Below the pieces are notes generated by a model. That model was not told the origin of the DNA, ran no database searches, and saw only the letters and a list, made by a program, of their open reading frames with translations. Below are positions 1-24,720 of a stretch of 41,809 nucleotides of DNA, in pieces. Source of the DNA: Nitrospina sp. (lineage in GTDB: Bacteria > Nitrospinota > Nitrospinia > Nitrospinales > VA-1); NCBI GenBank assembly GCA_018664975.1, contig JABIXH010000253.1, positions 1-41,809 of the forward strand, written 5' to 3'. Within the stretch, counting starts at the first letter, position 1, and every line of letters starts with the position of its first letter. The position numbers were made by a program, and so were the translations under genes.

Positions 1-2
1 AG

Positions 3-1538
3 GTGCTTGATCTTCGAGACGCTCTGTTTCAGGCGCAGCAGTCTGCTCAGCAATATGCGCTTAAAATCAAGATATTAGAAGAAGCCATTGAAAAGTTGAA
101 ATCTCCGGCCCACCGCATTGGCACCATCCTGGGCCAGGGGGAAGAAGGATTGGTGCGTCTGGTTTCTGGAGGAACAGAATATCAGGCGGCCGTTGTACCG
201 GAACTGATGGAAAATGGTGAATTAAAAACCGGTGATCAGGTAGCCCTCAATGAAGGATTCGTGGTGATTGCCCGGTTATTGTTTCCCAATCAGGGGCCAT
301 TAGCCAAAATTTCCGGAAAACTGGCGGGTGGACAATGGCTGGTTCAAGCGGCGACCGGCAATACGGAAACGATTGTAATGGCCCGTGATGGTTTGGATGA
401 AATGCAATTGAAAGAGGGAGAAGAAATTTTTCTCGATTCCAGCCAAAGGGTTATTTTGGGCAAACTTCCAAAACGGGAGTCACACACTCTTATTGAAGAT
501 GACTATGAACAGGTGGAATGGTCCCAAGTAGGCGGGCAGGAAAAAGTTAAGGAAGAAGTGCGCAAAGTCCTTGAATACCCTTTGCTCCACAAAGAGATTC
601 TGAGCAAAATGGAATATCAGGTGCCCAAGGGGTTTTTGTTTTATGGTCCACCCGGTTGCGGCAAAACCCTCATTGGCAAAGCAATTCTCACCGAAGTGAT
701 CCGTGAACTTTCTGCACACGAAAAATCAGAACTACAAGGCCGATTCATTCATGTGAAAGGGCCGGAGATTCTCAATATGTGGCTTGGGGAATCGGAACGG
801 AAAATTCGTGAAATTTTCAAGAAGGCCCGGGACTATAAAGAGAAGGGCCAGATCCCTTTTATATTTATAGATGAAGCGGAATCAATTCTGGGAACTCGGC
901 AGGCTTGGCGAGGATCTAATATTAGTAACACGGTTGTACCCATGTTTTGTGCGGAGATGGATGGTATCCAATCCCTTCGCGAAACAGTGGTGATTTTGGC
1001 AACCAACCGACCCGACCTGATCGACCCGGCTGTTATCAGACCCGGCAGAATTGATAGAAAGATCAAAGTATCACGTCCTAATCGCGAAGAGTGTAAAGCC
1101 ATCTTGCGTGTTTATCTAAAAGAGGGACTACCCCGTGAGCATGAAGATTTTGATGCTATGGCAGAACCTTTTCTGGATCGGCTCTTTAATCGAAGTGCCG
1201 CTCAGGAAGTACTGGTGCTGACCTTGCGGAGCGGTGGCAACCGCAAAATGTACTGGGACGATTTTATTTCCGGAGCAACCATAGAGGGAATTATGAAGCG
1301 TGCCAAGGAAAGAGCCATCGAGAGGGCAATTAATGGTGGAACACTTTCCCTGACCGTGGACGATCTGATTGTTTCTCTGGAAACCGAATTTGAAGAAGGT
1401 AGTTTGCTTCCGGCCGAATCCAATCTGGAAGATTGGCTGCAACTTCTGGATATGGAGTCCAAGAATGTAGTGCGGGTTAGGCGGCCTAACGAATCGGACA
1501 AAGCGACCGAAAATACGATTCGCAGGTCTATTATATGA
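3..1538 (+). CDS. mpa: Proteasome-associated AAA+ ATPase (Mpa/ARC family), 5'-truncated by the window edge
   Basis: N-terminal coiled-coil (LKIKILEEAIEKLK) is followed by an OB-like region. Walker A is GPPGCGKT and Walker B is FIFIDEAES. The protein is colinear with actinobacterial Mpa through the C-terminal domain (MYWDDFISGATIEGIMKRAKERAIE; NLEDWLQLL). Its stop overlaps the next gene start (ATGA at 1535-1538). Confidence 0.9.
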   Translation: MLDLRDALFQAQQSAQQYALKIKILEEAIEKLKSPAHRIGTILGQGEEGLVRLVSGGTEYQAAVVPELMENGELKTGDQVALNEGFVVIARLLFPNQGPLAKISGKLAGGQWLVQAATGNTETIVMARDGLDEMQLKEGEEIFLDSSQRVILGKLPKRESHTLIEDDYEQVEWSQVGGQEKVKEEVRKVLEYPLLHKEILSKMEYQVPKGFLFYGPPGCGKTLIGKAILTEVIRELSAHEKSELQGRFIHVKGPEILNMWLGESERKIREIFKKARDYKEKGQIPFIFIDEAESILGTRQAWRGSNISNTVVPMFCAEMDGIQSLRETVVILATNRPDLIDPAVIRPGRIDRKIKVSRPNREECKAILRVYLKEGLPREHEDFDAMAEPFLDRLFNRSAAQEVLVLTLRSGGNRKMYWDDFISGATIEGIMKRAKERAIERAINGGTLSLTVDDLIVSLETEFEEGSLLPAESNLEDWLQLLDMESKNVVRVRRPNESDKATENTIRRSII

Positions 1539-3004
1539 GCGTTCCTCTTCTGGGAATGGAAACTGAGTATGGAATAATCCGGGAAGACCTGGAAAATTCT
1601 GACCCGGTAGAAGAATCGATGAAACTATTGCAGGCCTGCAAGCGCAAAAGTGTTTTCTGCAAATGGGCTTACTCGCAAGAAAACTCGCATCTGGATATGC
1701 GAGGGTTCCGTGTAGGATCTTTGGCCCAGGATGAAGAAGAAGATGCTTTTTGCGCAGAAGATAGAAAAAGATCCTATTCCTATCTGGATATGAAGTGCGA
1801 CCGGGTTTTAACAAATGGTGCCCGTTTCTATAATGACCATACCCACCCTGAATATAGTACTCCAGAGTGCCGGTCCGTATTGTCTCTGGTCGCTCACGAT
1901 GTGGCAGGGGAAAGGATTGTCGGAGAATGTGTTGCGACCCGTAATCAGGAACTGGGGGATAATTCGCTTCAAGTTTTCAAAAATAATACTGACTACAGCG
2001 GTCACAGCTATGGAACCCATGATAACTACCTGATCCCTCGCGAAATTCCGTTTGATAATGTGGTAAACAGGCTGACTTCTTTTCTCGTAACACGTCAGCT
2101 GTATGCTGGCGCAGGAAAAGTGGGATCTGAAAATTCAGCAACCGCAAACTTTCAGGGCTTACAGTTGGCCCAACGATCTGATTTTATCGAAACGCTTTTA
2201 AGCATTGAGACCATGACGAAGCGTCCCCTCATTAACACTCGGGACGAACCCCATGCGGTGAGTAATAAGTACCGGCGTTTGCATTTGATTCTTGGCGATG
2301 CGAATATGTCTGCTTATGCAACAGCTTTAAAGGTGGGAAGTACTTTACTGGTTTTAAATTTAATAGCTGGTGAAGAGAAACTTCCAGACTTGGAATTAGC
2401 GGACCCCGTGGCCGATGTGCTGAAAGTATCCATTGATAAGGATGCCGTTTTACAGCGCAAATCAGGAGGAACCATCACGGCTCAGGAAATTCAGGAAGGC
2501 TATCTGGAAGCAGTGGAAAAGGCCTTTGCCGGGAAGAATAAAGAGTGTATCTGGATCATTGAGGAATGGAAGAGGACGCTAAATGAACTCAGACACAGTC
2601 CGGAAAAACTTTCTGACCGTATTGACTGGGCCATTAAGGAAAAATTATTCACTGAGTTTATGGATTCAGAAGGCATGGGCTGGGAAGACCCCTGGTTAAA
2701 GAGCCTGGATTTGGAATACCATAATCTGGATGCTGATCGGGGTTTATATCGGGGACTCCAACAGGAGGGCGCGGTCTATTCCCTGCTCAGTGAGAAAGAA
2801 ATCGCCGATGCGGTGGAGTCTCCCCCCGAAGGGACACGGGCCCAGATAAGGGGTCAGGCGGTAGCGCAAGATGCAGAGACTATTAAAAGTATTCATTGGA
2901 CCGGAGTAGAATTTGCAAATGGAGAGGTCCTCGACTTGACCGGAGTTATCAGCTCCGAAGAGGTTGAAAATATTCTCCACTCCAGGAAACAACTTGCTTT
3001 GTAA
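1535..3004 (+). CDS. dop: Dop-like Pup/UBact deamidase-depupylase (PafA/Dop carboxylate-amine ligase fold)
   Basis: N-terminus is GMETEYGI and there is an NGARFYNDHTHPEYSTPEC motif (compare Dop VDHAHPEYSAPEC). It has 80 residues between the ETEYG glycine and NGAR, against 50 in the paralogue at 4797. This fits the Dop-specific loop insertion. Confidence 0.8.
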   Translation: MSVPLLGMETEYGIIREDLENSDPVEESMKLLQACKRKSVFCKWAYSQENSHLDMRGFRVGSLAQDEEEDAFCAEDRKRSYSYLDMKCDRVLTNGARFYNDHTHPEYSTPECRSVLSLVAHDVAGERIVGECVATRNQELGDNSLQVFKNNTDYSGHSYGTHDNYLIPREIPFDNVVNRLTSFLVTRQLYAGAGKVGSENSATANFQGLQLAQRSDFIETLLSIETMTKRPLINTRDEPHAVSNKYRRLHLILGDANMSAYATALKVGSTLLVLNLIAGEEKLPDLELADPVADVLKVSIDKDAVLQRKSGGTITAQEIQEGYLEAVEKAFAGKNKECIWIIEEWKRTLNELRHSPEKLSDRIDWAIKEKLFTEFMDSEGMGWEDPWLKSLDLEYHNLDADRGLYRGLQQEGAVYSLLSEKEIADAVESPPEGTRAQIRGQAVAQDAETIKSIHWTGVEFANGEVLDLTGVISSEEVENILHSRKQLAL

Positions 3005-3024
3005 GCAGAGAGGAATAGTAGAAT

Positions 3025-3762
3025 ATGTTTGAAGAGCCATATCGCTGGATGGAGGCGGTTTCCACCCGACACAGTTACGTTCAGGAAAAGCTGAAAATGG
3101 GTCAGCCCGTGTTGTCTGTTCCTTTCGATGAAGGGGTGCTGATAATGGGGTTTGCTCCTCAGCCGGGTAAGATATTCGAAATTTATGATCGTATCGCCTT
3201 GGGTGGTGTGGGACATCCCGCAGATGTAGAGCGGTTGCGCATGACTCTTCTGGAAATGGCGCATTTAGAAGGATTCAATCGCTCGGCTCAGGATGTGACT
3301 TTGGCCAGGCTCCTGCAGTTTGGAGTAGCTCCGGCACTCAAACAAAACTTTGAGGAAATTCAACGGGCACCCTATATTATTCGACTTCTGCTTATCGAAC
3401 TGGATGGCGAAGGCAAGCCAAACTTTTTCCGCATAAATTATGATGGGCATTGGGAAACTTTTAAAAAGGGAACGGTCATTGCCGGTAGTGAAAAAGTTAT
3501 GGATTGGATTCAAAATGAAATCCAAAAAATTCCCTTTGAAACGTATACGCTTGAAAAGGCTTTAGAGGAAACCTGTCGACTTTGGGTTGAAAGCAAAAAA
3601 CAAGAAGACGAGGAAAATAAAGATTCCCCCGGGACTTTGAAAGAGGCTTTCGACCAATGGTATCTTGAAGGAGCCATGTTGTTGGGTAAACTGGATCGAA
3701 GGGCAATATATAGGACGCTCACCAAGGAAGAGATTGAAAAGTTGAAATCATCGGTCGGTTGA
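3025..3762 (+). CDS. prcA: 20S proteasome alpha subunit
   Basis: KIFEIYDRIALGGVG and FFRINYDGHW match PrcA blocks (KISELYDRVGFAAAG; LYRITYDGS). No catalytic Thr or propeptide. It lies within the proteasome operon. Confidence 0.8.
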   Translation: MFEEPYRWMEAVSTRHSYVQEKLKMGQPVLSVPFDEGVLIMGFAPQPGKIFEIYDRIALGGVGHPADVERLRMTLLEMAHLEGFNRSAQDVTLARLLQFGVAPALKQNFEEIQRAPYIIRLLLIELDGEGKPNFFRINYDGHWETFKKGTVIAGSEKVMDWIQNEIQKIPFETYTLEKALEETCRLWVESKKQEDEENKDSPGTLKEAFDQWYLEGAMLLGKLDRRAIYRTLTKEEIEKLKSSVG

Positions 3763-3813
3763 ACCCCTCTTAATGATGAGCAGAAACCACCCGTCAAAAA
3801 AGGAGTTGATCTC

Positions 3814-3990
3814 ATGGAAATGAACGATCCCCTGAGAAGGGAAGAAAAAAAAGAAACCAATCCAGATCGCCATGATTCCGGTCCCACCAGCCCGGAACCT
3901 TCACGGCCGGGCAGGGATAATATTTTGAAACGGATGAAAAAGGTGGACCCTAAACAGACAGAAAAATACAAACAGAGAACCGGCCAATGA
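3814..3990 (+). CDS. Small ubiquitin-like/Pup-like modifier, UBact-type (58 aa, absent from the ORF track)
   Basis: Manual translation: MEMNDPLRREEKKETNPDRHDSGPTSPEPSRPGRDNILKRMKKVDPKQTEKYKQRTGQ*. SD AGGAG (3801-3805) lies 8 nt before the ATG. The stop overlaps the prcB start (ATGA, 3987-3990). The N-terminus is low-complexity and probably disordered; the C-terminus is basic and helical and ends in Gly-Gln. It sits between the proteasome subunit genes. Confidence 0.75.
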   Translation: MEMNDPLRREEKKETNPDRHDSGPTSPEPSRPGRDNILKRMKKVDPKQTEKYKQRTGQ

Positions 3991-4787
3991 GTTATCAATC
4001 TGATCCCAAAAGTTCGCCCGGAGATTTTTTTGATCTCCTGGAAAAATCCGGTTATCGCTGGCAGGCCCGGATCGATCTTTCTCGCGCGCAAAATGATATT
4101 ACCGTCACCCATGGAACAACCGTCCTGGCATTCCATTTTAAGGATGGAGTGATTGTTGCCGGTGACCGGCGAGCGACAGCGGGTAATAGCATAATGTATG
4201 AATATTGCGACAAGGTTATTCCCATTGATGATCATTCATTGATGGCTATTGCCGGAGTTCCCGCTACAGCCTTTGAGATGGCCCGTGTGCTCACTCATAA
4301 TTTTGAGTTTTTCCGGCGTTCGCAGATGCAATCCATGAGTGGAGAAGGGAAAATTCGCGCCTTATCGAGACTGTTGAAAGAAAATGTGGGTATGGCTGTT
4401 CAAGGGCTGGGAGTGGTTAGCCCTATATTTGCCACCTATGATTTGAAAACGCGAAAACCCTGCATACATTTTTACGATATGTTAGGTGCGGATTTTCAGA
4501 TTCGTACCCATACCTCGACAGGATCGGGTTCCCCTACTATCCGGGGAATTCTGGAACATGAAGACCTGTGGGGCGAAAAACCTCTGGCAGAGAGGTCTGA
4601 AAAAAATGCCGTCACCCTGGCCGTTCGGCTTTTGCAAACTGCGGCACAGTTTGATTCTGCAACCGGTAAAGCGCGTCCGGAGGAAGAAGTTTACCCCACT
4701 GTGGCATTGATAACTGAGGCGGGTTACCGGTTTATGAATGATCAGGAACTGGCAGAACTATGCAAGACATCGCTGCAACGGGGTTAA
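3987..4787 (+). CDS. prcB: 20S proteasome beta subunit (Ntn hydrolase with propeptide)
   Basis: ...VTHG|TTVLAFHFKDGVIVAGDRRAT shows the classical Gly-Thr autoprocessing site and catalytic Thr1. GSGS and DSATG blocks are colinear with actinobacterial PrcB. Confidence 0.9.
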   Translation: MSYQSDPKSSPGDFFDLLEKSGYRWQARIDLSRAQNDITVTHGTTVLAFHFKDGVIVAGDRRATAGNSIMYEYCDKVIPIDDHSLMAIAGVPATAFEMARVLTHNFEFFRRSQMQSMSGEGKIRALSRLLKENVGMAVQGLGVVSPIFATYDLKTRKPCIHFYDMLGADFQIRTHTSTGSGSPTIRGILEHEDLWGEKPLAERSEKNAVTLAVRLLQTAAQFDSATGKARPEEEVYPTVALITEAGYRFMNDQELAELCKTSLQRG

Positions 4788-4796
4788 GGTTCATCT

Positions 4797-6305
4797 ATGA
4801 AAAAGCGTATCTACGGCATCGAAACGGAATACGGACTTCTGGTCAAAAATGTTGAGGAATTTCCTTATGATCCCATGGAGATTGCCAACAAGATCAAGAA
4901 CCATGTTTTCTCAAAGAATCTTGGGGTGCTGGATCTTCACTATCGTGCCAACGATGAACCTCCTGGTAATGGAGGCTTCTTGCTGAACGGTGGACGCCTG
5001 TATCTGGATATGGGCCATTTGGAATACGCCTCACCGGAATGCTCCAACCTTGTTGACCTTGTCACTTTTGACCGTGCCGGAGATACACTGATCCAGGAGG
5101 CTGTAGAAGAGTTGGGCTGGGCGGATCATATTTCCTTCATTAAGAACAATGTAGACCTCGAAACCAACGCCACTTTTGGATGCCACGAGAATTATCTGGT
5201 TGGCAGAGGGTTTCCCTTCGATGAACAGAACAACCTGAAACTGCTGTCTTCATTTTTAACAACGCGACTCATCTATTGCGGTGCCGGTCGTATCGGCTCC
5301 TGTGACCCTCACCCGTTTAGGGATTGGGAAGGTGTCACGCCTGATGAAAATCAAGGCGATGAAGTGGACTTTCAGATTTCACAAAGGGCCGATCATATTC
5401 CCAACGAATTTTACCGGTGGGTTCAGTATAACCGGGCCATCGTCAACACGCGCGATGAACCCTTATCGGACCCGAGCAAATACCGGCGAATACATCTTTT
5501 AGTTGGCGACTCTACTATGAGTGAGTTTGCGACTGCCATGAAGATGGGGACGACAACGCTCATGCTGGAAATCATGCAATTAGGTGTCGCTAAACGGGAA
5601 TGGATTCTCGCCGATTCGGTTCAGTCCATGCGATCTATTTCGCGTGACCCGGATTTCAAATGGCATGTGAAACTGGCTTCGGGAAATTCTTCCAGCGCTC
5701 TGGAATTGCAATGGGATATTTTGAACACCTGCAAACAACACCTGGGCGGGAAAGATCGCGAGACCGATTGGATTTTGGAGGGTTGGGAATCCGTCTTAAC
5801 CGATTTGCCTAAAGGCCCGGAAGCGGTCATCGGTAGAGTAGACTGGGCCAGTAAATACTGGATGCTTAACGAATTTAAAAATGAAGAAAATCTGGAATGG
5901 AGTGACCCCTGGCTAAAAAGCCTGGATTTGGAATATCATAATTTAAATAAGGAATCGGGCCTGTTCTGGGGACTGGAGGCCAACGGAGAGGGTTACAGAA
6001 AAACCACCGATGAGGCTGTGAACTTTTCAAAGGTTAATCCTCCTCGAGGGACTCGGGCGCATGGTCGAGGAGAACTCGTCAAAAGACTTATGGACCAGCA
6101 TTCTCACATGGGTTATCTCATAGACTGGATCGGGTTTCGCTTGGGCAAAACAGATGAGCCGTTTCTCATGCTGGATCCGTTCATTTCCTACAAGGAAGAA
6201 ATAATAAGTCACCTGACTCAATTTGATCCTCTACCTAATAAGGAAAGCGGGGAAGGTAAGGATGTAGGAAACCCTGGCGGAGAAGGGAAAAAACCTTATG
6301 AGTGA
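4797..6305 (+). CDS. pafA: PafA-like modifier-protein ligase
   Basis: GIETEYGL and NGGRLYLDMGHLEYASPEC (compare PafA [20 protein letters not shown]). It lacks the Dop loop. YRRIHLLVGDS and WLKSLDLEYHNL blocks are shared with the paralogue at 1535. Confidence 0.8.
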   Translation: MKKRIYGIETEYGLLVKNVEEFPYDPMEIANKIKNHVFSKNLGVLDLHYRANDEPPGNGGFLLNGGRLYLDMGHLEYASPECSNLVDLVTFDRAGDTLIQEAVEELGWADHISFIKNNVDLETNATFGCHENYLVGRGFPFDEQNNLKLLSSFLTTRLIYCGAGRIGSCDPHPFRDWEGVTPDENQGDEVDFQISQRADHIPNEFYRWVQYNRAIVNTRDEPLSDPSKYRRIHLLVGDSTMSEFATAMKMGTTTLMLEIMQLGVAKREWILADSVQSMRSISRDPDFKWHVKLASGNSSSALELQWDILNTCKQHLGGKDRETDWILEGWESVLTDLPKGPEAVIGRVDWASKYWMLNEFKNEENLEWSDPWLKSLDLEYHNLNKESGLFWGLEANGEGYRKTTDEAVNFSKVNPPRGTRAHGRGELVKRLMDQHSHMGYLIDWIGFRLGKTDEPFLMLDPFISYKEEIISHLTQFDPLPNKESGEGKDVGNPGGEGKKPYE

Positions 6306-6642
6306 TTGTCTTTTTTGCAAAATTAGTGAAGGTAGTATTCCTTCCGATAAGGTTTATGAATCGGACACGTTGTTTGCAATTAATGATATCAATCCACAGG
6401 CCCCTACGCATATACTAATCATTCCCCGTATTCATCAGTCCACTCTGCTTGATGTCGAGGAAAAAGACCATACGATGATGGGTTCGGTAATCAGTGTGGC
6501 CAACCAACTGGCTAAGGAAAGAGGACTCGATAAATCAGGATTCCGGCTGGTGGTCAATTGCGGAGCAGGTGCCGGGCAATCTGTATTCCATATTCATTTT
6601 CATTTAATAGGTGGGCGTGCCTTGAACTGGCCGCCGGGTTAG
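6298..6642 (+). CDS. HIT-family (histidine triad) nucleotide hydrolase
   Basis: CLFCKI N-terminus and the histidine triad HIHFHLIGG. The start overlaps the pafA stop by 8 nt. Confidence 0.85.
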   Translation: MSDCLFCKISEGSIPSDKVYESDTLFAINDINPQAPTHILIIPRIHQSTLLDVEEKDHTMMGSVISVANQLAKERGLDKSGFRLVVNCGAGAGQSVFHIHFHLIGGRALNWPPG

Positions 6643-6646
6643 AAAG

Positions 6647-7660
6647 ATGGTTACCGCAGAAAAACTCTACGAAAAACTAAAGGATATTCAGGTGGGCAAT
6701 CCGGTTTGCCGGTTTACTCGCGAGAATTGTGAATTGTTGCTCCCCACAATTCAAAGGATTGAAGATCTCAAGCGCGAAAAGAATGCCATCATTCTGGTTC
6801 ATAATTATGTCGCGCCGCAAATTTACTATAGCGTGGCCGATTTCACCGGCGATTCATATGGACTGTCAAAAAAAGCGAAAGAATCCAATGCCGATGTCAT
6901 CGTTTTTTCAGCCGTTCGCTTTATGGCAGAAACCGCCAAAATTCTTAATCCGGGCAAAATGGTGCTGGACCCTAATCCGAATGGCGGATGTTCTCTCGCC
7001 GATGGGATAACGGCAAATGATGTAATCAAGCTTCGTAAAGAATTTCCCGATCATACATTCGTTTGCTATATCAATACGACTGCGGAGGTAAAAGCCCAGT
7101 GTGATGTATGTGTAACCTCCTCAAATGTTTATGGCATTATTGAAAAAATCCCCAACGACAAAATTTATTTTTTGCCCGATCGGCTCATGGGCGAAAATGT
7201 TATTGCCCATCTTAAAACTCGTGGCGTGTATAAGGATATTCAACTTTGGGATGGCACCTGCTATGTTCATGAGGAATACCAGCCCGAAAGCATTGATCAG
7301 GTGCGGAATAATTTTGAAGATGTGGAGATTCTCGTTCATCCCGAGTGCAATTCTTCAGTCGTGGACAAGGCGGATTATGTAGGAAGCACCAGTCAAATGC
7401 TCGACCATGTGCGTGAGTCGAAGAGAGATACATTCTTTTTGCTCACGGAGTGTGGGTTGACCGGTGTTTTGCAATCGGAGTTTCCAGAAAAAACATTTGC
7501 AGGAAGCTGTACCCTTTGCAAATACATGAAATCCAATTCTCTGGAAGACATATTAAACGTCCTGGAAAATCCTGGTCCAAATAGCATCGTTGAAATCAAC
7601 CCGGAAACTCAGAAACGTGCTCTTCAATGCGTGGATCGCATGTTTGAATACACCTCTTGA
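6647..7660 (+). CDS. nadA: Quinolinate synthase
   Basis: VHNYVAPQI..ADFTGDS, RFMAETAKIL and VHPEC motifs, with a typical length of about 335 aa. Confidence 0.85.
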   Translation: MVTAEKLYEKLKDIQVGNPVCRFTRENCELLLPTIQRIEDLKREKNAIILVHNYVAPQIYYSVADFTGDSYGLSKKAKESNADVIVFSAVRFMAETAKILNPGKMVLDPNPNGGCSLADGITANDVIKLRKEFPDHTFVCYINTTAEVKAQCDVCVTSSNVYGIIEKIPNDKIYFLPDRLMGENVIAHLKTRGVYKDIQLWDGTCYVHEEYQPESIDQVRNNFEDVEILVHPECNSSVVDKADYVGSTSQMLDHVRESKRDTFFLLTECGLTGVLQSEFPEKTFAGSCTLCKYMKSNSLEDILNVLENPGPNSIVEINPETQKRALQCVDRMFEYTS

Positions 7661-7816
7661 ATCAATAAGTCAAATAGTACTCCAAAACCTCTTGATTTTT
7701 CAGTTTCTACAACCCTTTTTAAATAAAAGCTTATGCCATTTTTTACCCTTGCCGTTAAGGATATACAGGGCATGGAATAGCCCGAATTAAATATCTTTTC
7801 GGTGGAGGATGACTCA

Positions 7817-8290
7817 ATGATTGGAGACAGTGGAGGACTCGGTTCAACCATTCTCAATAGTTTTACCCAGAAGGCTTTTCAGCAGGTTCAAAAGGATGAC
7901 ACCAACCGCTCGGGTGGACTGGATCTCAGCGAAATTCAGAAGAAATCAGATGAGACCGGAAGTGGTAAAGACCTGATAGATAATTTTGATTCCATCGATA
8001 CGGACCAAAGCGGAGAATTATCAGCTACGGAATTGATTGCTTTTCGAGCAAAGTCTACGGAAGGGCGAGAAGAGCTTTTTAACCAATTAAAAAATATTTT
8101 TGACCAATCAGGAATTTCCAGTAACAGCATTACTGATTTCTTGAGTGGCCAGACAGGCCAGCAAAATGATTTAACTTCCCTCCTGCAATCGAGCACAGAT
8201 CTGGATGCCTTGATTGAATCTAGAGTTCAGGAGATTCTGACTAGTACCGGTGAGACAGCCTCTCTCTTAAACTTCGATACCACTATTTGA
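7817..8290 (+). CDS. Small EF-hand calcium-binding protein
   Basis: Two canonical 12-residue EF loops are present, DTNRSGGLDLSE and DTDQSGELSATE. The track start is GTG at 7802. ATG 7817 is preferred because SD GGAGGA (7804-7809) lies 7 nt upstream. Confidence 0.55.
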   Translation: MIGDSGGLGSTILNSFTQKAFQQVQKDDTNRSGGLDLSEIQKKSDETGSGKDLIDNFDSIDTDQSGELSATELIAFRAKSTEGREELFNQLKNIFDQSGISSNSITDFLSGQTGQQNDLTSLLQSSTDLDALIESRVQEILTSTGETASLLNFDTTI

Positions 8291-8353
8291 TGATTATTTT
8301 CTTCAGGTAAATTAGGGGGGAGTTATAGCCATAAGGGAAAATGCGCGGTGGTA

Positions 8354-9286
8354 TTAAACCATCCGATAGCCCCCATTTTTCTCTTTTAGGGCGACCAACA
8401 GGGTGCCTTGAAATTCCTTATTGGTACCTTTTTTCATAACCATCTCATGAGGCACACTCCACATTCCTGTAGCAGTCATCATAAAGTTCATGCTATTGCA
8501 GAAATCGTAGAGATTGGACTGTTCATTTACTTTCAGAGATATTTCCATATCAGACGTAGCTCTGGGGCCAACGCGCCGGGTCAAAATATGAGCCCGGGTT
8601 GAATTACTGAGTACACCATCATAAAATTCATTAAAGTCATGACCAATCAGGTCAAACACATCAAACCCTATAAAGCTGACGGCTTTATTGGCAAAATTAA
8701 TTTTACCTTCCGGGTCGGTCTGGATAATCAGGTCTGATACCGAGTCAATAACCTTGCGGTATTTTTCACGGCTGTTCCTGATCTCCTGATAACCGTCCTC
8801 AATGATTTCGAGATCACTCCGGTTTCTGGCTGAGACAGTTTTTAAAATTTCCCATACCACCTTGGGGTTGGAAGCAAAATACTTAAAGAAAGTATCTTTT
8901 TCTATTTCCAGCACTTCAGAATTGGCAAGGGCTCGGACACTGGCTGCCCGGGGTTTGGATTCCACCAACGCCATTTCACCTACAAAATCCCCGGTTCCAC
9001 GAACCGCGATTTGTTTATGCCTTTTATAAACCTCCATTTTTCCGGAAAGAATGATGTACATGGTTTCCTGAAAAGCGCCTTCAGAAAATAGAACCTGGCC
9101 TTTTTTCAGAAAAATTTGTTTTCCGGCTTCAAAAACCTGCTCCAATTCCATATCCCCAAATAAACTGGAGAAGGCGGTTTGTTTCAGGGCTTCTAAATCT
9201 TTAGAAAGATCCATATCACTAAAACCATCTGTAATAATTTTTAATGGTGTTAATGTTAATCTATCTGCTAAATTATTTAAATGCAA
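8354..9286 (-). CDS. Cyclic-nucleotide-binding domain protein with C-terminal PAS-like domain
   Basis: CAP-effector-domain signature FSEGAFQETMYIILSGKMEV...GDFVGEMALVESKPRAASVRA, followed by a PAS-like segment (VSDLIIQTDPEGKINFANKA). No HTH or enzymatic output domain is recognisable. The track start is TTG; the first ATG would be at 9214. Confidence 0.7.
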   Translation of the reverse strand: MHLNNLADRLTLTPLKIITDGFSDMDLSKDLEALKQTAFSSLFGDMELEQVFEAGKQIFLKKGQVLFSEGAFQETMYIILSGKMEVYKRHKQIAVRGTGDFVGEMALVESKPRAASVRALANSEVLEIEKDTFFKYFASNPKVVWEILKTVSARNRSDLEIIEDGYQEIRNSREKYRKVIDSVSDLIIQTDPEGKINFANKAVSFIGFDVFDLIGHDFNEFYDGVLSNSTRAHILTRRVGPRATSDMEISLKVNEQSNLYDFCNSMNFMMTATGMWSVPHEMVMKKGTNKEFQGTLLVALKEKNGGYRMV

Positions 9287-12726: not shown

Positions 12727-12800
12727 ATCGGAACATATAACGATCAGGTCAATATATTATAACAGAGGATTTGTTTTTAACCGGAGAAACAGGAAAATTC

Positions 12801-13385
12801 ATGATGCAAACAAAAAAACATCGGTTTAGGCAGTTATTGAAACGTTATATGAAGCGGAGCGTTCCTGTTTTGATGGTTCTGGGGCTGGTGGGTGCGGCTC
12901 CCGTTTTTGCGGAAGAAAAATGTGAGCCTGTGGATAAAAAACGCATCAAAATTGAGGGTTTCATTTCAAAATCTTATCGAAAGCAAAGAAAACAGGTCTT
13001 TAAGGAGTTTGGCGAGATCGGTTCAACAAAGGTGGCTTTGAGGGTGTATCCCATGGGGGAGACCTCAAAAGTGATTGCGGTGGGGCGATGTGTTCCAGCT
13101 TATATCGCCCAGCATATTATCAAAAAATCTATGGAATACAGCACGGGTGTGGAGAGTCTTGTGCAACAGCAATTTATCCATACCCACTGGGTGGGTGTTG
13201 GCGTCACCATGTTCGATGAACCTTCACAGCAGATTGTATCCGCCGACCAGGTCCAGCAACTCTTAAAACAGGATCTCTCGGATGAGGAGTTTCATGTTCT
13301 CTATCGAAAATTGTCCGTACCCAATGCCCTGGTTCCATTTTTTGGCTTGAAATCGCCAAATGTTAAAATTGCGCAACCGAACTAA
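12801..13385 (+). CDS. Secreted hypothetical protein
   Basis: Signal peptide MMQTKKHRF...VLMVLGLVGAAPVFA|EEK. The track start is TTG at 12771; ATG 12801 is preferred. No family recognised. Confidence 0.5.
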   Translation: MMQTKKHRFRQLLKRYMKRSVPVLMVLGLVGAAPVFAEEKCEPVDKKRIKIEGFISKSYRKQRKQVFKEFGEIGSTKVALRVYPMGETSKVIAVGRCVPAYIAQHIIKKSMEYSTGVESLVQQQFIHTHWVGVGVTMFDEPSQQIVSADQVQQLLKQDLSDEEFHVLYRKLSVPNALVPFFGLKSPNVKIAQPN

Positions 13386-14879: not shown

Positions 14880-15563
14880 CTAGAATTCAGCTTCTTCTGT
14901 TTTACTTCCATGGCGGATTATTTCTCCGGTGACCAGATAAATCACGTCTTCGGCGATATTGGTAGCATGGTCGGCCATTCGCTCAAGATACCGTGAGGCG
15001 GAAAGAAGCTGGATATAACTGTTTAAATTATTGGAGTCCTTTTTAATGGCTTGTGCAACGCAACCATACATTTCCCGATTCAAATCATCCACGGCATCAT
15101 CATCTTCACAAACTTTGCGGGCAAGTTTCTCATCCCGATTCACCAGGGAATCCAGTGAGCGTTTTAGCATGGAACGAACCTTCTTAGCCATATTCTGCAA
15201 ATCGAAAGGTAGTTCTACTTTTGCTTCTGTGGAAAGGTAAACCGCTCGCTCTGCAATGTTTACGGAAAGATCGCCGATACGTTCCAAATCATTATTAATT
15301 TTTAAGATCGCAATGATCAAGCGCAAGTCGTTGGCCACTGGCTGGTGAAGAGCGAGAATTTTAAGACATTCTTCCTCCACATAAACTTCCCGCTGATCAA
15401 TTTCGTAATCCGCTTCGATGACCCTCTTTGCAAGATCAGAATCTCGTTGGGTCAAGGATTGAACTGCAAGTCGGGCACTTTCTTCAACATCAGTTCCAAG
15501 CGAAAGTATTAAACGTTTGAGTTCATCAATAGCTTTTTCAAGATGAATGGCATGTCGTGACAT
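14880..15563 (-). CDS. phoU: Phosphate signalling complex protein PhoU
   Basis: Two PhoU repeats (IDQREVYVEEECLKILALHQPVANDLR; ERIGDLSVNIAE / ERMADHATNIAE), 227 aa, immediately after pstB. Confidence 0.9.
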   Translation of the reverse strand: MSRHAIHLEKAIDELKRLILSLGTDVEESARLAVQSLTQRDSDLAKRVIEADYEIDQREVYVEEECLKILALHQPVANDLRLIIAILKINNDLERIGDLSVNIAERAVYLSTEAKVELPFDLQNMAKKVRSMLKRSLDSLVNRDEKLARKVCEDDDAVDDLNREMYGCVAQAIKKDSNNLNSYIQLLSASRYLERMADHATNIAEDVIYLVTGEIIRHGSKTEEAEF

Positions 15564-15573
15564 TAAAAACCCC

Positions 15574-16428
15574 TTAACCGAATCTGCCGGTTATATAGTC
15601 TTCCGTTTTGGGTACGGAAGGATTGGTGAATAATTTTTCGGTCGGACCAAACTCAATCAATTCTCCCAGCAACAGGAATCCTGTAAAATCTGCAACCCGG
15701 GCGGCTTGTTGCATATTGTGTGTCACAATCACAATGGTGAAATGCTCTTTCAATCCTACCATTAACTCCTCAATTCTTGCGGTAGCAATTGGGTCCAGGG
15801 CCGAGCAAGGCTCATCCATTAAAAGCACTTCTGGTTCTACTGCAATGGCCCGAGCGATACAAAGTCTTTGTTGTTGACCTCCAGACAAGGCCAGAGCGCT
15901 GGAGCCCAGCCGGTCCTTGACTTCATCCCAAAGAGCCACCGACTTCAGGCTTTTTTCTACAATTTCATGCAACCTGTTTTTATCTTTCATCCCGTGGATC
16001 CGAGGACCATAGGCCACATTTTCAAAAATAGTCTTTGGAAACGGGTTGAATTTTTGAAATACCATGCCCACATTTTTCCTTAGTTCGCTCACATCCAAGG
16101 CGGGGTCCATGGTATTCAACCCACCAATTTGTATTTTTCCCTCCATGCGGGTGCCTTCTACCAGATCATTCATACGATTCAGGCATCTAAGAAGGGTGGA
16201 CTTGCCACAGCCCGAGGGACCAATAAATGAAGTGATCTTCCTCTCAGGAAGAGTCATATTGATATTTTTAAGCGCCTGGGTCTCACCGTAGAAAAAGTCC
16301 ACATTTTCAATTTTGATCATCAAGCTTTGATCATTGTTAGAATCTGTAACCTTCATTCCAATGGCATTTGAAGATGAATAGTCAATGTTAGTACGGTCTA
16401 CTTTATTTTTAATTTTTATTTCAGCCAT
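15574..16428 (-). CDS. pstB: Phosphate ABC transporter ATP-binding protein
   Basis: Walker [13 protein letters not shown] signature LSGGQQQRL, Walker [12 protein letters not shown]. The PstB-typical C-terminus is [10 protein letters not shown]. Confidence 0.95.
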
Positions 16429-16449
16429 TATAATTTACCCGATTTCATA

Positions 16450-18081
16450 CTAAACCGCTGAAGCAGTAAGTTGTTTTCTGAGACGGTTTCTCAAGTATAT
16501 GGCCGCCATGTTTAAAAGAATGATCATCAAAAGGAGCAATAAGGTCGTGGCAAAAACCATGGGCCGAGCCGCATCAACATTTGGCGATTGGAACCCGACA
16601 TCATAAATATGAAAACCCAGGTGCATAAATTTTCTTTCCAGATGCAGAAAAGGCCACAAACCATCAATAGGAAGAGAGGGCGCCAGTTTTACTACCCCGG
16701 TGATCATTAAAGGTGCAACCTCGCCAGCGGCTCTTGCCATAGCCAGGATGAGTCCTGTTAAAACGGAGGGCATGACGGCGGGCAGTACAACCCTCCAGGT
16801 AGTTTCAAACTTGGTGGCTCCTACAGCGAGAGAGGCTTCTCGGATTCCTTTTGGAACTGCGGCTAAACCTTCTTCGGTCGATACAATCACGACCGGAACG
16901 GTGAGTAAAGCCATGGTGAGTGATGCCCATAAAATCCCTCCGGTTCCGAAGGTTGGGGTTGGAAGTGACTCTGAAAAAAATATCTGATCAATAGAGCCTC
17001 CAATAAAATAAATGAAAAAACCAACTCCAAAAACTCCAATGACAATAGATGGAATGCCCGCCAGATTGTTAACGGCGATTCGTACAATGCTGACCAAGGT
17101 TCCTTGCTTGGCATATTCCCGCAAATAAAATGCGGCCAAAACACCTAAGGGAGTTGCCAAAAGGCTCATCATCAATACCATAAGAATAGTGCCGTAAATG
17201 GCAGGAAACACCCCTCCCTCTGTATTGGCTTCCCGAGGATCATCCCAGAAAAAATTATTAATTCCTTTCAGGAGGTATGCAATTTTATCCGGCAGGGAAA
17301 AAGCGTTGGGGTTGTTGATATCCAGCATTTGTGAAAGCGGAAGAGTTTTTTCTCGACCTTCTAGGGTTTGCAAAACAATTTTCGCGGTTTGCGCAGTGCG
17401 CAGTTGGTGGAGCTTGTTCTCCAGCATGTCATAATGAGATTGCAGGATGGGAACTTCACTTTTCAATGCTTCTACTTCTGCCCCTTGAGTGACACCTTTC
17501 AGGTTGAGTTTTCTCAGCTTTAAACGAACCCGTTCTAACTTGTAGTTGATGGCTCCAATTTCCTTTTTCTCAATTTTTTCAATATCTTTATTTTTTTTTG
17601 TGACACCCGGTAAAAGGTTCCGAGCAACCTTCAACCCTTCCACGGTACCTTTGGCAATGACTTGATCTCCATCCAGAACCTCCTTGATATATCCAAAGAA
17701 AACCCCCCATTCTCTTCGTGTTACAGCAACTACATCTTTTGGAGTTTGAGAAATTTTTATACTCTCTTCATCGATCCAGACGAAATCTGAATTATAAATA
17801 TCTCTATTGGCCTTTTTAATCTGTATTCGATATAGCTCAGGCTTCCCATTGGCTGGCCCAAAGTCTGGGATTACTTCCCGAGCCATTTGAATTCCCAATA
17901 CACGCGATCCATCTTTAAGGTCCAGGATTTTTAACTCCCCCGGCCAGAAAGAACCCATTGCATTGACAACAATAGCCATGAGGAGTGCGGCTGTCATGAT
18001 GAGAGAAAGCGCAAGCCCTGCTCCCGTCAACCAGATGAACAGGTCTCCTCGTTTCCAGACTTTTTTTCCTTTATCAAACAT
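16450..18081 (-). CDS. pstA: Phosphate ABC transporter permease PstA, long form with an extracytoplasmic insertion of about 240 aa
   Basis: The C-terminal half is a standard PstA permease core (EASLAVGATKFETTWRVVLP). Residues about 47-289, between TM1 and the core, include a coiled-coil-like stretch. Confidence 0.9.
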   Translation of the reverse strand: MFDKGKKVWKRGDLFIWLTGAGLALSLIMTAALLMAIVVNAMGSFWPGELKILDLKDGSRVLGIQMAREVIPDFGPANGKPELYRIQIKKANRDIYNSDFVWIDEESIKISQTPKDVVAVTRREWGVFFGYIKEVLDGDQVIAKGTVEGLKVARNLLPGVTKKNKDIEKIEKKEIGAINYKLERVRLKLRKLNLKGVTQGAEVEALKSEVPILQSHYDMLENKLHQLRTAQTAKIVLQTLEGREKTLPLSQMLDINNPNAFSLPDKIAYLLKGINNFFWDDPREANTEGGVFPAIYGTILMVLMMSLLATPLGVLAAFYLREYAKQGTLVSIVRIAVNNLAGIPSIVIGVFGVGFFIYFIGGSIDQIFFSESLPTPTFGTGGILWASLTMALLTVPVVIVSTEEGLAAVPKGIREASLAVGATKFETTWRVVLPAVMPSVLTGLILAMARAAGEVAPLMITGVVKLAPSLPIDGLWPFLHLERKFMHLGFHIYDVGFQSPNVDAARPMVFATTLLLLLMIILLNMAAIYLRNRLRKQLTASAV

Positions 18082-18087
18082 TTAACC

Positions 18088-20343
18088 TCATAGGCCTTGA
18101 TAGCGTTTGCGTAATCTCAGACGAACCAGTTCCGCCAGAGTGTTAACAAAAAATGTCATGGTAAATAACAGGAATGCCGCAAGAAAAAGAATACGAAACA
18201 GAGTTCCTCCCTCAGGAGCTTCCGGGAGTTCTACGGCAATATTTGCGGACAAGGCGCGAAAACCATTAAATATGCTCCACTCCATAACTGGGGTGTTTCC
18301 TGTCGCCATGAGCACAATCATGGTTTCACCAATGGCTCGTCCGAACCCGATCATGATCGCAGAAAAAATTCCTGGACTGGCAGTTGGCAGAATCACATTG
18401 AGAGCGGTCTGCCAGGGTGTCGCTCCTAAAGCGAGTGAAGAAGCCTTAAGATGTTCCGGGACATTGGATAGTGAATCCTCGGCTATTGTGAATATGATAG
18501 GAATGACTGCAAACCCCATAGCCAAACCGACAACCAACGCGTTTCTCTGGTCATAGGTAACATCAAATACCTGCTTCAGCCAAACTCGGTGGTCCCCTAA
18601 AAGGACGGAGGATTCTATCAAGGTCCCTGCGTAAAATGACAAGACCCCTCCAAGAAAAGTAATGACGATCAATAAATAAATCTCCCTGCCACCTTTAGCC
18701 ATAAACTGTAAAGCGGGAAATTTTTCATAAGCCAGTAAAGTTGTAACTATCATGATAGTTACAATTATCGGCATGATCATGATTCCTGGGAGAAATGTCT
18801 CTACCTGTGGGGCAATCACCAGAGCCGCAAAAAATCCAAGTACCACACTGGGAAGTGCGGCCATGGTTTCTATTGTTGGTTTAATTATTCTTTTCAAATC
18901 AGGCTGCATGAATTGGGATACGTAAAAGGAAGCGAACAGAGCTAGAGGAACAGCAAAACACATGGCATAGAGTGTTCCTTTTAATGTCCCAAACATTAGT
19001 GGCACAAGGCTGAATTTAGATTCGAATTCATCCGTTCCACCCGTGGATTGCCAAACATAAGTGGGTTCTTCATATCCCTCATACCAGATTTCACCGAATA
19101 ACCCTTCCAGTGAAATTTGCGGGTAGGGATTCTCCATTTTCCAGAGATACAATATCCCTTGAGTATCGGCTGTCAATATTCCATCAAACTTGGGGGCTAT
19201 AATCGCTGTTTTGTAAGCGGTTTTTTCCTCTGCGGGGAGTTGAATCTGGGTTTCCCCTGTTGTCCCATAATGCAAACGAATCATTTCATTAGATCCAGTC
19301 AGAAACCCTTTATTGCGAAGAGAAAAACTGAAAAATTTTGCCGGAGTTTTATGTGACGAAAAGTTATATATTTTCTTTAGAGAAAATATTTTAGTTTCAG
19401 ATTTTGCCAATTGAAAGGAACTTACCCTCCCATCTGATTCTGTTACTATCAAAGTGTAGCCACCGAGGGTAAAACCTAAATGTTCCACAGCTATTCCGGG
19501 ATTGCTGGTTGCTCCGATCAATTGGGCCGAGTTTTGAGTGTTTTCCAGGTCAGCCCGAAAGATCTGGCCAAATGAAGTTCCTATTAAAAGACTGTTATAA
19601 GCTTCATCAAAAATCATTGATGTGATTTTGCCTTCTACCGGAACAGTAATCGATTCTTGTGATTGGGTTCGTCGAATCGTCCCCATCATGGTTTTACGTA
19701 AACGTACTTTAATGAGAGAGACCTGACCTGGCCCAGACTGGGCGGCAATCTGATATCCTTGCTCATTTTTAATATGGGTCAATAAAGTAACGGGCGAACC
19801 ATCGGGACGAACCTGAACCGGAGATTCAGCGCTTAGATGTGGTTCAATAGAACGTTGACTATCAGAATTATAAACCGGGCGAAACTCAATGTTTATGGGA
19901 TAAACCCTGCCATCGGAAAGACCCAATACCGGAAAATTTTTTAAAGAAGGGGATACACCTGTAACGTGCGCTGATCCCCATTCAGGTAATTCTGGTTTGG
20001 ACTCAAATTTTTTATCGCTTAATGAATAAAAACGTACGCCATCTGCTTCCACTGTGTAACCCTTATCCTGATAAGGATCTAAACCAATTGCCAGTGGAAC
20101 GCTCTGTGCTTTGAATTTTGAAACCAGGGAAATAGATGGTTTTTTAAATAGAGGATAAATTTCTGAGATAATTACAAAAAGGATAGCGAAAATGGATGCG
20201 ATGATGATCCAACCGCCGGCTGTGACAACATTACGGGCTATACCATCTGCAAATTGCCGTTGGAGTAAACTTTTGCCGAAAAAAGCCCGGCCGGGTCTTG
20301 AAGAACCTTGGCCGGGCAGAATAGATTTTGCTTTATCGTCCAT
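18088..20343 (-). CDS. pstC: Phosphate ABC transporter permease PstC, very long form (751 aa) with an extracytoplasmic domain of about 380 aa
   Basis: The C-terminal 300 aa or so form a PstC permease core (EDSLSNVPEHLKASSLALGATPWQT). Residues about 67-444 lie between TM1 and TM2. Confidence 0.85.
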   Translation of the reverse strand: MDDKAKSILPGQGSSRPGRAFFGKSLLQRQFADGIARNVVTAGGWIIIASIFAILFVIISEIYPLFKKPSISLVSKFKAQSVPLAIGLDPYQDKGYTVEADGVRFYSLSDKKFESKPELPEWGSAHVTGVSPSLKNFPVLGLSDGRVYPINIEFRPVYNSDSQRSIEPHLSAESPVQVRPDGSPVTLLTHIKNEQGYQIAAQSGPGQVSLIKVRLRKTMMGTIRRTQSQESITVPVEGKITSMIFDEAYNSLLIGTSFGQIFRADLENTQNSAQLIGATSNPGIAVEHLGFTLGGYTLIVTESDGRVSSFQLAKSETKIFSLKKIYNFSSHKTPAKFFSFSLRNKGFLTGSNEMIRLHYGTTGETQIQLPAEEKTAYKTAIIAPKFDGILTADTQGILYLWKMENPYPQISLEGLFGEIWYEGYEEPTYVWQSTGGTDEFESKFSLVPLMFGTLKGTLYAMCFAVPLALFASFYVSQFMQPDLKRIIKPTIETMAALPSVVLGFFAALVIAPQVETFLPGIMIMPIIVTIMIVTTLLAYEKFPALQFMAKGGREIYLLIVITFLGGVLSFYAGTLIESSVLLGDHRVWLKQVFDVTYDQRNALVVGLAMGFAVIPIIFTIAEDSLSNVPEHLKASSLALGATPWQTALNVILPTASPGIFSAIMIGFGRAIGETMIVLMATGNTPVMEWSIFNGFRALSANIAVELPEAPEGGTLFRILFLAAFLLFTMTFFVNTLAELVRLRLRKRYQGL

Positions 20344-20347
20344 TTAA

Positions 20348-21322
20348 TTAATTGGTCATGACTGCTGAGATTTTTTGTAAATCCGCATCGGTCACAGCCT
20401 TGGCAATCGGAAAGTAACCGCCCTTAACCACCACTTGCTGGCCTTCTTTGGAAAGGATCATTTTGACAAACTCCTGAGTCAACGGATCAAGAGATTTACC
20501 GGGAGCCTTGTTGACATAGATGTATAGAAATCGAGCCAGAGGATAATCGCCGGTGAGGGCATTCTCTGCTGAGGGTTCAACAAAGCTAGAGCCACTTTGT
20601 GCCAATGGCAGAGCGCGTACGCTGGCAGTTTTATAACCGATACCACTGTATCCCGCTGAGAAGGGATCAACACTTACACTCTGAACTACCGAAGCAGAGC
20701 CAGGCTGTTCTTTCACTTCATCTTTGTAGTCGCCTTTTTTCATGACCAGCTTTTTGAAAAAGCCATAAGTACCGGAAGCTGAATTCCTTCCATAGACACT
20801 AATGGGCCTGTCTGCCCAGTTCCCCGTAACCCCCAGGTCGCCCCAGGTTTCTACAGCTTTGTGGCCTCTTCTGCGACTTTTGGAAAAAAGAGCATCCACT
20901 TGTTCCATATTTAATCCCTGAATCGGATTGTCCTTGTTGACGAAAACCGCAAGGGCATCGACTGCAACACGAACCGGGGTGGGTTTGTAGCCGAACTTGG
21001 ATTCAAAAGCATCCAGTTCTTTTTGCTTCATCGCGCGAGACATGGGACCCAATTGCGCGGTTGCTGAAATTAAGGCTGGCGGGGCAGTTGAGGAACCCTT
21101 GCCCTCCACCTGAATATTAACGTTTGGATAAAATTGCTTAAACTTTTCACTCCACAATGTCATCAGGTTATTCAAAGTATCTGATCCCACACTGGAAAGA
21201 TTTCCACTGACTCCGCCCTGCTTACTGTAGTCGGTGAGTTGAGGGTCCACCTGAACCGGTCCTCCAAAAGCGTTATTAGTCCAGACCAAAACCAGTAAAA
21301 TTATTCCTATTTTTTTGTACAT
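20348..21322 (-). CDS. pstS: Periplasmic phosphate-binding protein
   Basis: [18 protein letters not shown] and [10 protein letters not shown] phosphate-binding blocks. The track start 21355 is probably an over-extension. ATG 21322 has SD AAGGAG (21329-21334) 6 nt upstream and yields the signal peptide [20 protein letters not shown]. Confidence 0.9.
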
Positions 21323-21400
21323 TGCCTGCTCCTTAAAAGATTGCTGTTGATTCATAGCAACAATCTAAACATTTATTATTAGATTTATAACTGCTCAGTA

Positions 21401-21417
21401 TTAGGATTGTGTTAGGA
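21401..21417 (-). promoter_or_regulatory. Candidate Pho box upstream of pstS (two 11-bp-phased hexamers)
   Basis: TTAGGAttgtgTTAGGA on the + strand (TCCTAA in gene orientation). Exactly 11 nt separate it from a -10-like TATAAA (complement of 21384-21389). It lies about 80 nt upstream of the pstS ATG. Confidence 0.4.
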
Positions 21418-21440
21418 GTGGAAAATTAAGAAAAGGAGTG

Positions 21441-21490
21441 AGAAGAAAAAAAACCGTTGACCTGACTTTAAAGCCAGACCAACGGTTTTT
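21441..21490 (-). terminator. Rho-independent terminator after the porin gene
   Basis: AACCGTTG (21452-21459) pairs with CAACGGTT (21480-21487), with further partial pairing inside. On the - strand the hairpin is followed by TTTTTTTTCTTCT. Confidence 0.55.
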
Positions 21491-21536
21491 TATAGACTCA
21501 ATCTTGGAGGAGGTTGAATGCTAAAACAATGACTTA

Positions 21537-22697: not shown

Positions 22698-22762
22698 TGT
22701 AATCTCCTCCTTCAAAAATCAATAATTTTGACAATTTCATGAGGAATAATACAAATATCAAA

Positions 22763-22790
22763 TTAGGAAATTGTTAGGACTGGATTAGGG
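22763..22790 (-). promoter_or_regulatory. Candidate Pho box upstream of the porin gene (three 11-bp-phased hexamers)
   Basis: TTAGGAaattgTTAGGActggaTTAGGG. Exactly 11 nt separate it from a -10-like TATTAT (complement of 22746-22751). This is the same geometry as at pstS. Confidence 0.45.
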
Positions 22791-22852
22791 TTTTAAAGGT
22801 CGGGGGGGGATATAAAAATTATTCTATTGATATACGTAGATTTTTGCTGAGC

Positions 22853-24628: not shown

Positions 24629-24720
24629 AGCTTTTGATTTGCGAACTTAACCTGTATTTTCTCACCTGTAAAATAGGGGGAATGAAACAACTAAAAACCT
24701 GTTCAGAATTTAACCCGGTT

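Follow-up and report, generated by a model that had tools for sequence, protein, structure and literature searches.

A predicted UBact modifier gene in the prcA–prcB interval of a Nitrospina sp. proteasome locus

We analysed a 41,809-nucleotide (nt) stretch of DNA from Nitrospina sp. (contig JABIXH010000253.1 of assembly GCA_018664975.1; hereafter the window), which opens with a co-oriented set of proteasome genes: a proteasomal AAA+ ATPase, two Pup_ligase-family enzymes and the alpha and beta subunits of the 20S proteasome (Table 1). The interval between the alpha and beta genes, prcA and prcB, measures 224 nt (alpha open reading frame (ORF) end at 3762, beta ATG at 3987) and holds a further ORF, ubact, of 58 codons on the + strand, with its ATG at 3814 and its TGA stop at 3988–3990. 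The coordinates and the translation are identical to those given in the first-pass annotation of this DNA, which had also described an AGGAG Shine-Dalgarno sequence with an 8-nt spacer and an overlap of the ubact stop with the prcB start codon; both are seen in the sequence, the overlap as ATGA at 3987–3990. The encoded peptide ends in ILKRMKKVDPKQTEKYKQRTGQ, followed directly by the stop codon. Within the window, ubact is present as a single copy.

By sequence comparison, the product of ubact belongs to the UBact family, the identity first proposed for it, and is unremarkable within that family. It matched both curated models well above their cut-offs: the NCBIfam equivalog model NF033388, 'ubiquitin-like protein UBact' (66.2 bits, E = 2.2e-18, cut-off 35 bits), and the Pfam model PF20513 (66.8 bits, E = 1.4e-18, cut-off 27.8 bits). 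A cluster search covering 5.8 billion proteins returned 152 homologous clusters, all carrying PF20513; among the 120 clusters listed, identity to the query was 74–91% and every named one was from Nitrospinota. The named homologues come from Nitrospina and Nitrospinaceae. Several of the 152 clusters are labelled 'ubiquitin-like protein UBact' by NCBI, one of them from Nitrospina watsonii, and at least one distant cluster, from Gemmatimonadota, bears the UBact name. A family profile search covering 1.84 billion representatives gave 140 UBact family representatives, of which 112 end in [TS]G[QE] (71 with Q, 41 with E). The C-terminal motif shown by these representatives, LLKRM[RK]KVDPxQxx[KR]YRQR[TS]G[QE], agrees with the one given in the first-pass annotation (LLKRM.KVDP....YRQR[TS]G[EQ]), and the window peptide carries the family motif [IL]LKRM[KR]KVDPxQxx[KR]Y[KR]QR[TS]G[QE] at its extreme C-terminus. 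Its setting is also that of a UBact gene: the host lies outside Actinobacteria, in a Gram-negative phylum (Nitrospinota), and the ORF is flanked by a proteasomal AAA ATPase, both types of 20S subunit and a pair of Pup_ligase-family enzymes.

Like the family at large, the window peptide is short, predicted to be mostly disordered, and encoded with Dop-like, PafA-like, 20S alpha/beta and AAA ATPase genes. It differs in that KYKQRTGQ stands in the Nitrospinota version in place of the RYRQRTGQ seen in most of the family, in that Nitrospinota UBact has its own conserved, lineage-specific N-terminal motif (M-x-M-N-D-P-L-R-R-E-E-K-K), and in that the gene in the window clade lies between prcA and prcB, not directly 3′ of dop. 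These departures are lineage-level only. The family was described in 2017 by Lehmann et al. (doi 10.1016/j.bbrc.2017.01.037, cited as reference 195 in PMC5751360). The exact window peptide occurs on 11 contigs across NCBI nr, JGI and ENA, and its 90% cluster mates bear the name 'ubiquitin-like protein UBact [Nitrospina sp.]' (for example, MBT3183118.1); the description of the ORF as unannotated therefore holds for the ORF track then in use, but not for these databases. Because the family, its occurrence in Nitrospina and the exact protein are all in public annotation, the finding as such was already known.

Conservation of the frame was assessed in 30 related syntenic loci, which were fetched with the downstream PrcB and not with the peptide as query, because a peptide query would have made the test circular. 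By title, 29 of the 30 are Nitrospinota metagenome-assembled genomes and the other (L028) an 'uncultured bacterium'; their PrcB proteins are 65 to 96% identical to that of the window, the closest locus being that of Nitrospina sp. SI036_bin78 (96%). A same-frame ORF ending in ...KYKQRTG[Q/E] lies directly 5′ of prcB in every one of these loci, with a terminal Q in 29 and E in one. The AGGAG is kept with similar spacing, and the ATGA overlap with prcB recurs in 29/30 loci, L028 having GTGA. In a set of 29 ungapped 58-codon orthologues, 23, 12 and 53 of 58 sites vary at codon positions 1, 2 and 3, respectively, and the pooled non-synonymous value (pN) is 0.082 against a synonymous value (pS) of 0.734. 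The ratio of non-synonymous to synonymous substitution (dN/dS) is ~0.03–0.05 in the ubact frame, compared with 2.2 and 4.0 in the two other frames; it is only approximate because synonymous sites are near saturation, but the direction of the signal, purifying in the ubact frame only, is not in doubt. Frame conservation with synonymous bias had been suggested as a check on the ORF, and relatives thus bear it out. The N-terminal 33 codons, predicted to be disordered, are also constrained (dN/dS 0.065), and conservation of the peptide is highest in its last residues: Y52-K-Q-R-T-G57 is invariant, and position 58 is always Q or E.

The ORF at 3814..3990 is therefore a real, strongly constrained coding gene. 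A short ORF of 58 codons that overlaps a downstream start codon, as leader ORFs do, might instead be a chance frame, or a leader whose translation alone drives prcB expression, with no functional protein made from it. Yet the peptide sequence is kept across loci in which PrcB is just 65–70% identical, non-synonymous change amounts to 8% where synonymous sites are saturated, and two curated protein-family models are matched far above their thresholds. We give this non-gene or leader reading practically no weight and regard it as already refuted by the family-model matches, the 30-locus conservation and the codon statistics. An antisense ORF of 241 amino acids (aa) at 3510..4235 (−), which covers the last part of prcA, all of ubact and the first part of prcB, was rejected as a shadow ORF of these genes, since only the + strand frame is borne out by the codon-position pattern. 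The conserved ATGA overlap probably couples UBact synthesis to beta-subunit synthesis.

The flanking genes supply the partners that a Pup-type system would use. The ATPase aligned with Mpa (7px9_A) over residues 13–494 and scored 380.7 bits against TIGR03689 (pup_AAA; equivalog cut-off 504.75); in relatives the protein has 27 extra N-terminal residues (MGDQTHIVELIDQVLNETQDRPQLQEK). Its stop codon overlaps the ATG of dop (ATGA, 1535–1538). For the alpha subunit, TIGR03691 (20S_bact_alpha) gave 59.1 bits (E = 4.2e-16, cut-off 139.05), and for the beta subunit TIGR03690 gave 161.8 bits (cut-off 191.9). Beta residue T44 aligns with residue 1 of the mature chains 1q5q_H and 2fhg_H, and D60 and K76 are positions 17 and 33 counted from it, so that the Thr1/Asp17/Lys33 catalytic triad is complete.

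The two Pup_ligase-family paralogues can be told apart by the Dop loop, which distinguishes Dop from PafA (PMC8599861): the upstream enzyme has the loop and the downstream one does not. The upstream, Dop-like product scored 417.1 bits with the NCBIfam Dop model (cut-off 492.3) versus 355 with PafA, and aligned end to end with the Dop structures 9cku, 5lrt and 4b0r (~297 bits). It keeps the Dop-loop region, with a conserved Trp and an RGF motif, and the DHxHPEYS active-site Asp. The downstream, PafA-like product scored 319.2 bits with the PafA model over its full length (cut-off 551.3) versus 304 with Dop over part of it; only PafA 4b0t aligned with it end to end (residues 2–470), whereas its alignment with Dop starts at residue 53, with the Dop-loop region skipped. 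All Pup-type conjugation and proteasome partner genes are present at the locus, with their diagnostic features intact.

Junctions between these co-oriented genes are tight, with the two ATGA overlaps at 1535–1538 and 3987–3990 and gaps of 20 (dop–prcA), 51 and 9 nt. Promoter- and terminator-like sites in 1..8400 were no more frequent than in shuffled sequence. From this arrangement, ATPase-dop-prcA-ubact-prcB-pafA, with or without the HIT gene that follows, apparently forms a single operon. The HIT gene lies 3′ of pafA in most related loci, in both gene orders, and possibly belongs to the tagging operon; we know of no functional link between it and the tagging system. It is followed by an ORF at 6647..7660 that served as a synteny marker under the label 'NadA', a name given from sequence reading.

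Table 1. Genes and signals of the ubact locus, in window coordinates.
Feature	Coordinates	Strand	Evidence
Proteasomal AAA+ ATPase (Mpa/ARC-like), 5′ end cut by window start	3..1538	+	TIGR03689, Pfam AAA and both OB domains
Dop-like deamidase/de-conjugase (Pup_ligase family, with Dop loop), predicted	1535..3004	+	Pfam PF03136, 498.9 bits
20S proteasome alpha subunit (prcA), upstream of ubact	3025..3762	+	TIGR03691, Pfam Proteasome
Shine-Dalgarno AGGAG, 8-nt spacer (3806–3813) to ubact ATG	3801..3805	+	Sequence reading
ubact, predicted 58-aa UBact modifier ending ...YKQRTGQ	3814..3990	+	Both curated UBact models, conserved ORF
20S proteasome beta subunit (prcB), 43-aa propeptide, start overlaps ubact stop	3987..4787	+	TIGR03690
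PafA-like ligase (Pup_ligase family, no Dop loop), predicted	4797..6305	+	Pfam PF03136, 417.5 bits
HIT-family hydrolase, 8-nt overlap with pafA stop	6298..6642	+	Pfam HIT, 88 bits

Wherever the related loci extend far enough, the five-partner arrangement around ubact holds, in one of three architectures. The window shares its order, ATPase-dop-prcA-ubact-prcB-pafA, with 14 loci, and nine others (L011–L016, L018–L020) have the same order plus an extra beta-type subunit between dop and prcA, so that prcA stands between dop and ubact in the window and 23 loci (L001–L020, L025, L027, L030). Six deeper-branching loci (L021–L024, L026, L028) have ATPase-dop-ubact-prcB-prcA-pafA instead. In Actinobacteria the order is ATPase-dop-tag-prcB-prcA-pafA, which these six Nitrospinota loci share. 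The ubact–prcB pair is kept as an overlapping unit in all three architectures. The gene order of the Pup–proteasome system has been called 'rigidly conserved' by Barandun et al. (PMC3511204), and the tag gene was described as 'invariably' adjacent to a PafA-family gene by Iyer et al. 2008 (PMC2588565); the window clade, with prcA moved 5′ of ubact, is an exception to both published rules.

The extra beta-type subunit, exemplified by L011 4135..4950 (+), is 271 aa long with an intact GTTVLAF Thr1 motif and is ~52% identical to the main beta. Across loci it is ~50% identical to all main betas, which are mutually 65–70% identical; being about equally distant from all of them, it is not a recent tandem copy; either it is an old paralogue or it was acquired by transfer, and the two betas may assemble into mixed rings. 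In the window it is absent, the dop–prcA gap being 20 nt. Recent tandem duplication followed by loss was considered as the origin of the prcA-ubact-prcB order and found unsupported, since the extra beta is too divergent.

Structure prediction with AlphaFold2, run on the peptide with a 39-sequence alignment, gave coil for residues 1–33 and helices at 34–42 and 46–56, with a mean predicted local distance difference test (pLDDT) score of only 67. Pup forms two helices on Dop and PafA (PMC8599861), and the UBact model, at that mean pLDDT, would be compatible with them, with two short C-terminal helices predicted after an N-terminal half predicted to be disordered. UBact is similar in size to Pup and has a Gly-Gln/Glu conjugation end, a terminal G-Q/G-E that matches the G[EQ] signature given for Pup-type tags by Iyer et al. 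2008 (PMC2588565). Compared with the Pup of Mycobacterium tuberculosis (Mtb), the sequence of which was verified against PDB 7px9_G, it has the same spacing of Y(−6), Q(−4), K/R(−3), G(−1) and Q(0), and in helix 1 the two tags agree in their i, i+1, i+4, i+7 pattern of hydrophobic residues.

Beyond these likenesses, the two tags diverge. UBact ends in T-G-Q and Pup in G-G-[QE], with only G-[QE] in common; the net charge of the whole tag is +4 in UBact versus −12 in Pup; and the linker between the helices is four residues shorter in UBact, the centre of which is proline-rich (P17...P32). UBact contains eight lysines (Mtb Pup has three), a number that could permit tags to be attached to one another in chains. 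UBact was also compared with ubiquitin and the archaeal SAMP/Urm1-type modifiers. With these it would share the general role of a small protein that is joined C-terminally to the lysines of substrates and has a link to the proteasome; fold and chemistry are unrelated, however: they have a beta-grasp fold, whereas disorder with two short helices is predicted for UBact. Ubiquitin is handled by E1, E2 and E3 enzymes, whereas the UBact enzymes are of the glutamine-synthetase-like Pup_ligase family (PMC2588565). Going by Pup biochemistry, UBact would be attached through the side-chain gamma-carboxylate of a terminal Glu, in contrast to the main-chain carboxylate of Gly.

Taken together, we favour the reading that UBact is a Pup-like conjugated modifier serving proteasomal degradation, encoded with a full Pup-type partner set, and put its probability at roughly 80%. 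In the sequence of events that this reading implies, UBact would be made as a largely disordered peptide with a terminal Gln58, which the Dop-like enzyme (1535..3004) would deamidate to Glu. The PafA-like enzyme (4797..6305) would then phosphorylate the gamma-carboxylate with ATP and ligate it to target lysines at their epsilon-amino groups, with the UBact helices 34–42 and 46–56 docking in the enzyme groove. The ATPase (3..1538) would recognize the tagged protein, unfold it and thread it into the 20S particle (3025..3762 plus 3987..4787), where it would be degraded, and the Dop-like enzyme could also remove the tag.

Several observations weigh against this reading, beginning with the tag itself. 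By standard tools, the similarity of UBact to Pup does not reach significance: a Pfam search of the peptide at E ≤ 10 gave only UBact and no Pup family match, no Pup model in NCBIfam matched at E ≤ 0.01, hhalign against Pup returned a probability of 0.33%, and BLASTP against Pup gave no alignment. The peptide had indeed been described from the outset as unlike actinobacterial Pup. A UBact profile run against PDB sequences found no UBact structure, its best match being titin (E = 0.51). An anchored alignment of Pup 37–64 with UBact 35–58 (D..L.....V.....E----.Y.Q..GQ) scored 24, against 8.8 ± 3.8 for shuffles (p ~0.002, or 0.009 with GQ fixed), but is supportive and not decisive because it was picked after inspecting both sequences. 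UBact would work like Pup, yet fails Pup-family sequence tests. Moreover, the enzyme-binding half of the tag has a net charge of +5 in UBact versus −8 in Pup. Pup binds the coiled coil of Mpa through a long helix, and the proline-rich middle of UBact makes such a helix unlikely.

Further points on the same side concern the partners. The ATPase, Dop-like, PafA-like, alpha and beta products all score under their NCBIfam equivalog cut-offs, which marks them as divergent relatives and not as actinobacterial-type orthologues. The margin between the PafA and Dop models for the PafA-like product is small (15 bits), so that this call rests mainly on architecture and position. Mpa ends in GQYL, with a penultimate tyrosine as docking motif, whereas the ATPase of the window ends in ...NTIRRSII; most relatives have RRS[IV]I, and the ending is [IVM]-I, without Tyr, in all. 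The ATPase may therefore dock differently on the 20S alpha ring. Finally, no experimental study of any UBact was found in the searchable literature of 8.3 million papers and preprints, where three papers name UBact only in passing, consistent with the earlier statement that the tagging system has no experimentally defined substrates.

Some of these points would equally suit a tag that is conjugated without being mainly a degradation signal, or one that the ATPase reads in a manner unlike Pup; such a modifier could mark proteins for regulation or protection, roles of the kind proposed for pupylation in actinobacteria that have no proteasome. The inverted charge of the C-terminal half would fit this alternative, as would the proline-rich segment 17–33, predicted to be coil, and an ATPase that lacks the penultimate-Tyr docking motif and falls below the Mpa equivalog cut-off. 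So would the constraint on the N-terminal 33 codons, since the N-terminus of Pup is only loosely conserved. Set against it are the ATGA overlap of ubact with prcB in 29/30 loci and the operon shared with the alpha, beta and ATPase genes in all 30: ubact is physically locked to proteasome genes, which speaks for a proteasome-linked function. A further point against it is the complete catalytic triad of the beta subunit, and we consider this alternative to degradative tagging rather unlikely.

The same coupling to prcB, together with the loss of dop adjacency in the window clade, might be taken to mean that UBact is never conjugated at all, and acts as a free cofactor of the proteasome (in assembly or gating, stoichiometric with beta) or as an adaptor of the ATPase. 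That no UBact conjugate has been demonstrated in the searchable literature would also agree with it. However, the C-terminus is the most conserved part of the peptide and always ends in Q or E, the chemical requirement for PafA-type ligation, and two Pup_ligase-family enzymes co-occur with ubact in every related locus of sufficient length. An unconjugated cofactor would need neither a terminal Q/E alternation nor a deamidase. A cofactor role of this kind thus seems to us highly improbable, and conjugation by a Pup-type pathway is the reading that we retain.

It is unlikely, but worth stating, that in marine Nitrospinaceae the recognition of UBact has departed from the Pup model, the tag being read through a different interface or its production being coupled to proteasome assembly in a manner not known from Actinobacteria. 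This suggestion draws on the basic C-terminal half, the proline-rich centre, the constrained N-terminal motif and the ATPase without a Tyr motif, as well as on a ubact gene detached from dop and joined to prcB by ATGA, and on the second beta paralogue in the sister clade.

The remainder of the window is ordinary chromosomal content. Apart from the HIT gene, genes for metabolism and housekeeping include those for fumarase, a glycerophosphodiester phosphodiesterase, a nitrilase-family hydrolase, chorismate synthase, HU, SppA, ribosomal protein S1, cytidylate kinase, prephenate dehydrogenase, P-protein, a thiamine-binding protein and a cytochrome c. Regulatory and signalling proteins are represented by a cyclic nucleotide monophosphate-binding/PAS protein and a sigma-70 factor, as well as several sensor kinases. 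A phosphate-uptake pst-phoU operon at 14880–25410 (−) comprises phoU, pstB, two permease genes, pstS and a porin gene; the two permease genes are unusually long (543 and 751 aa), and a PhoR-like kinase and a PhoB-like regulator come after the phosphate-uptake genes. The ORF at 12771–13385 (+; 204 aa) had no Pfam match, and that at 7802–8290 (+; 162 aa) had only weak EF-hand matches. No transfer RNA genes or Rfam families were found across the whole window.

No element of a new type is added by the window; its value lies in the confirmation of a catalogued gene and in clean evidence, from comparison among loci, that ubact is expressed as a protein. It also highlights lineage-specific departures from Pup in gene order, charge and the ATPase tail, although the new points, namely the relocation of prcA, the charge inversion relative to Pup and an ATPase tail without the penultimate tyrosine, are minor. 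For Gram-negative bacteria, no ubiquitin-like system of degradation other than UBact-type tagging is known to have been proposed. In the sea, Nitrospina are the main oxidizers of nitrite, and because named species such as N. watsonii have close orthologues, an organism of ecological importance could serve for study of the system, provided that such strains can be had in culture.

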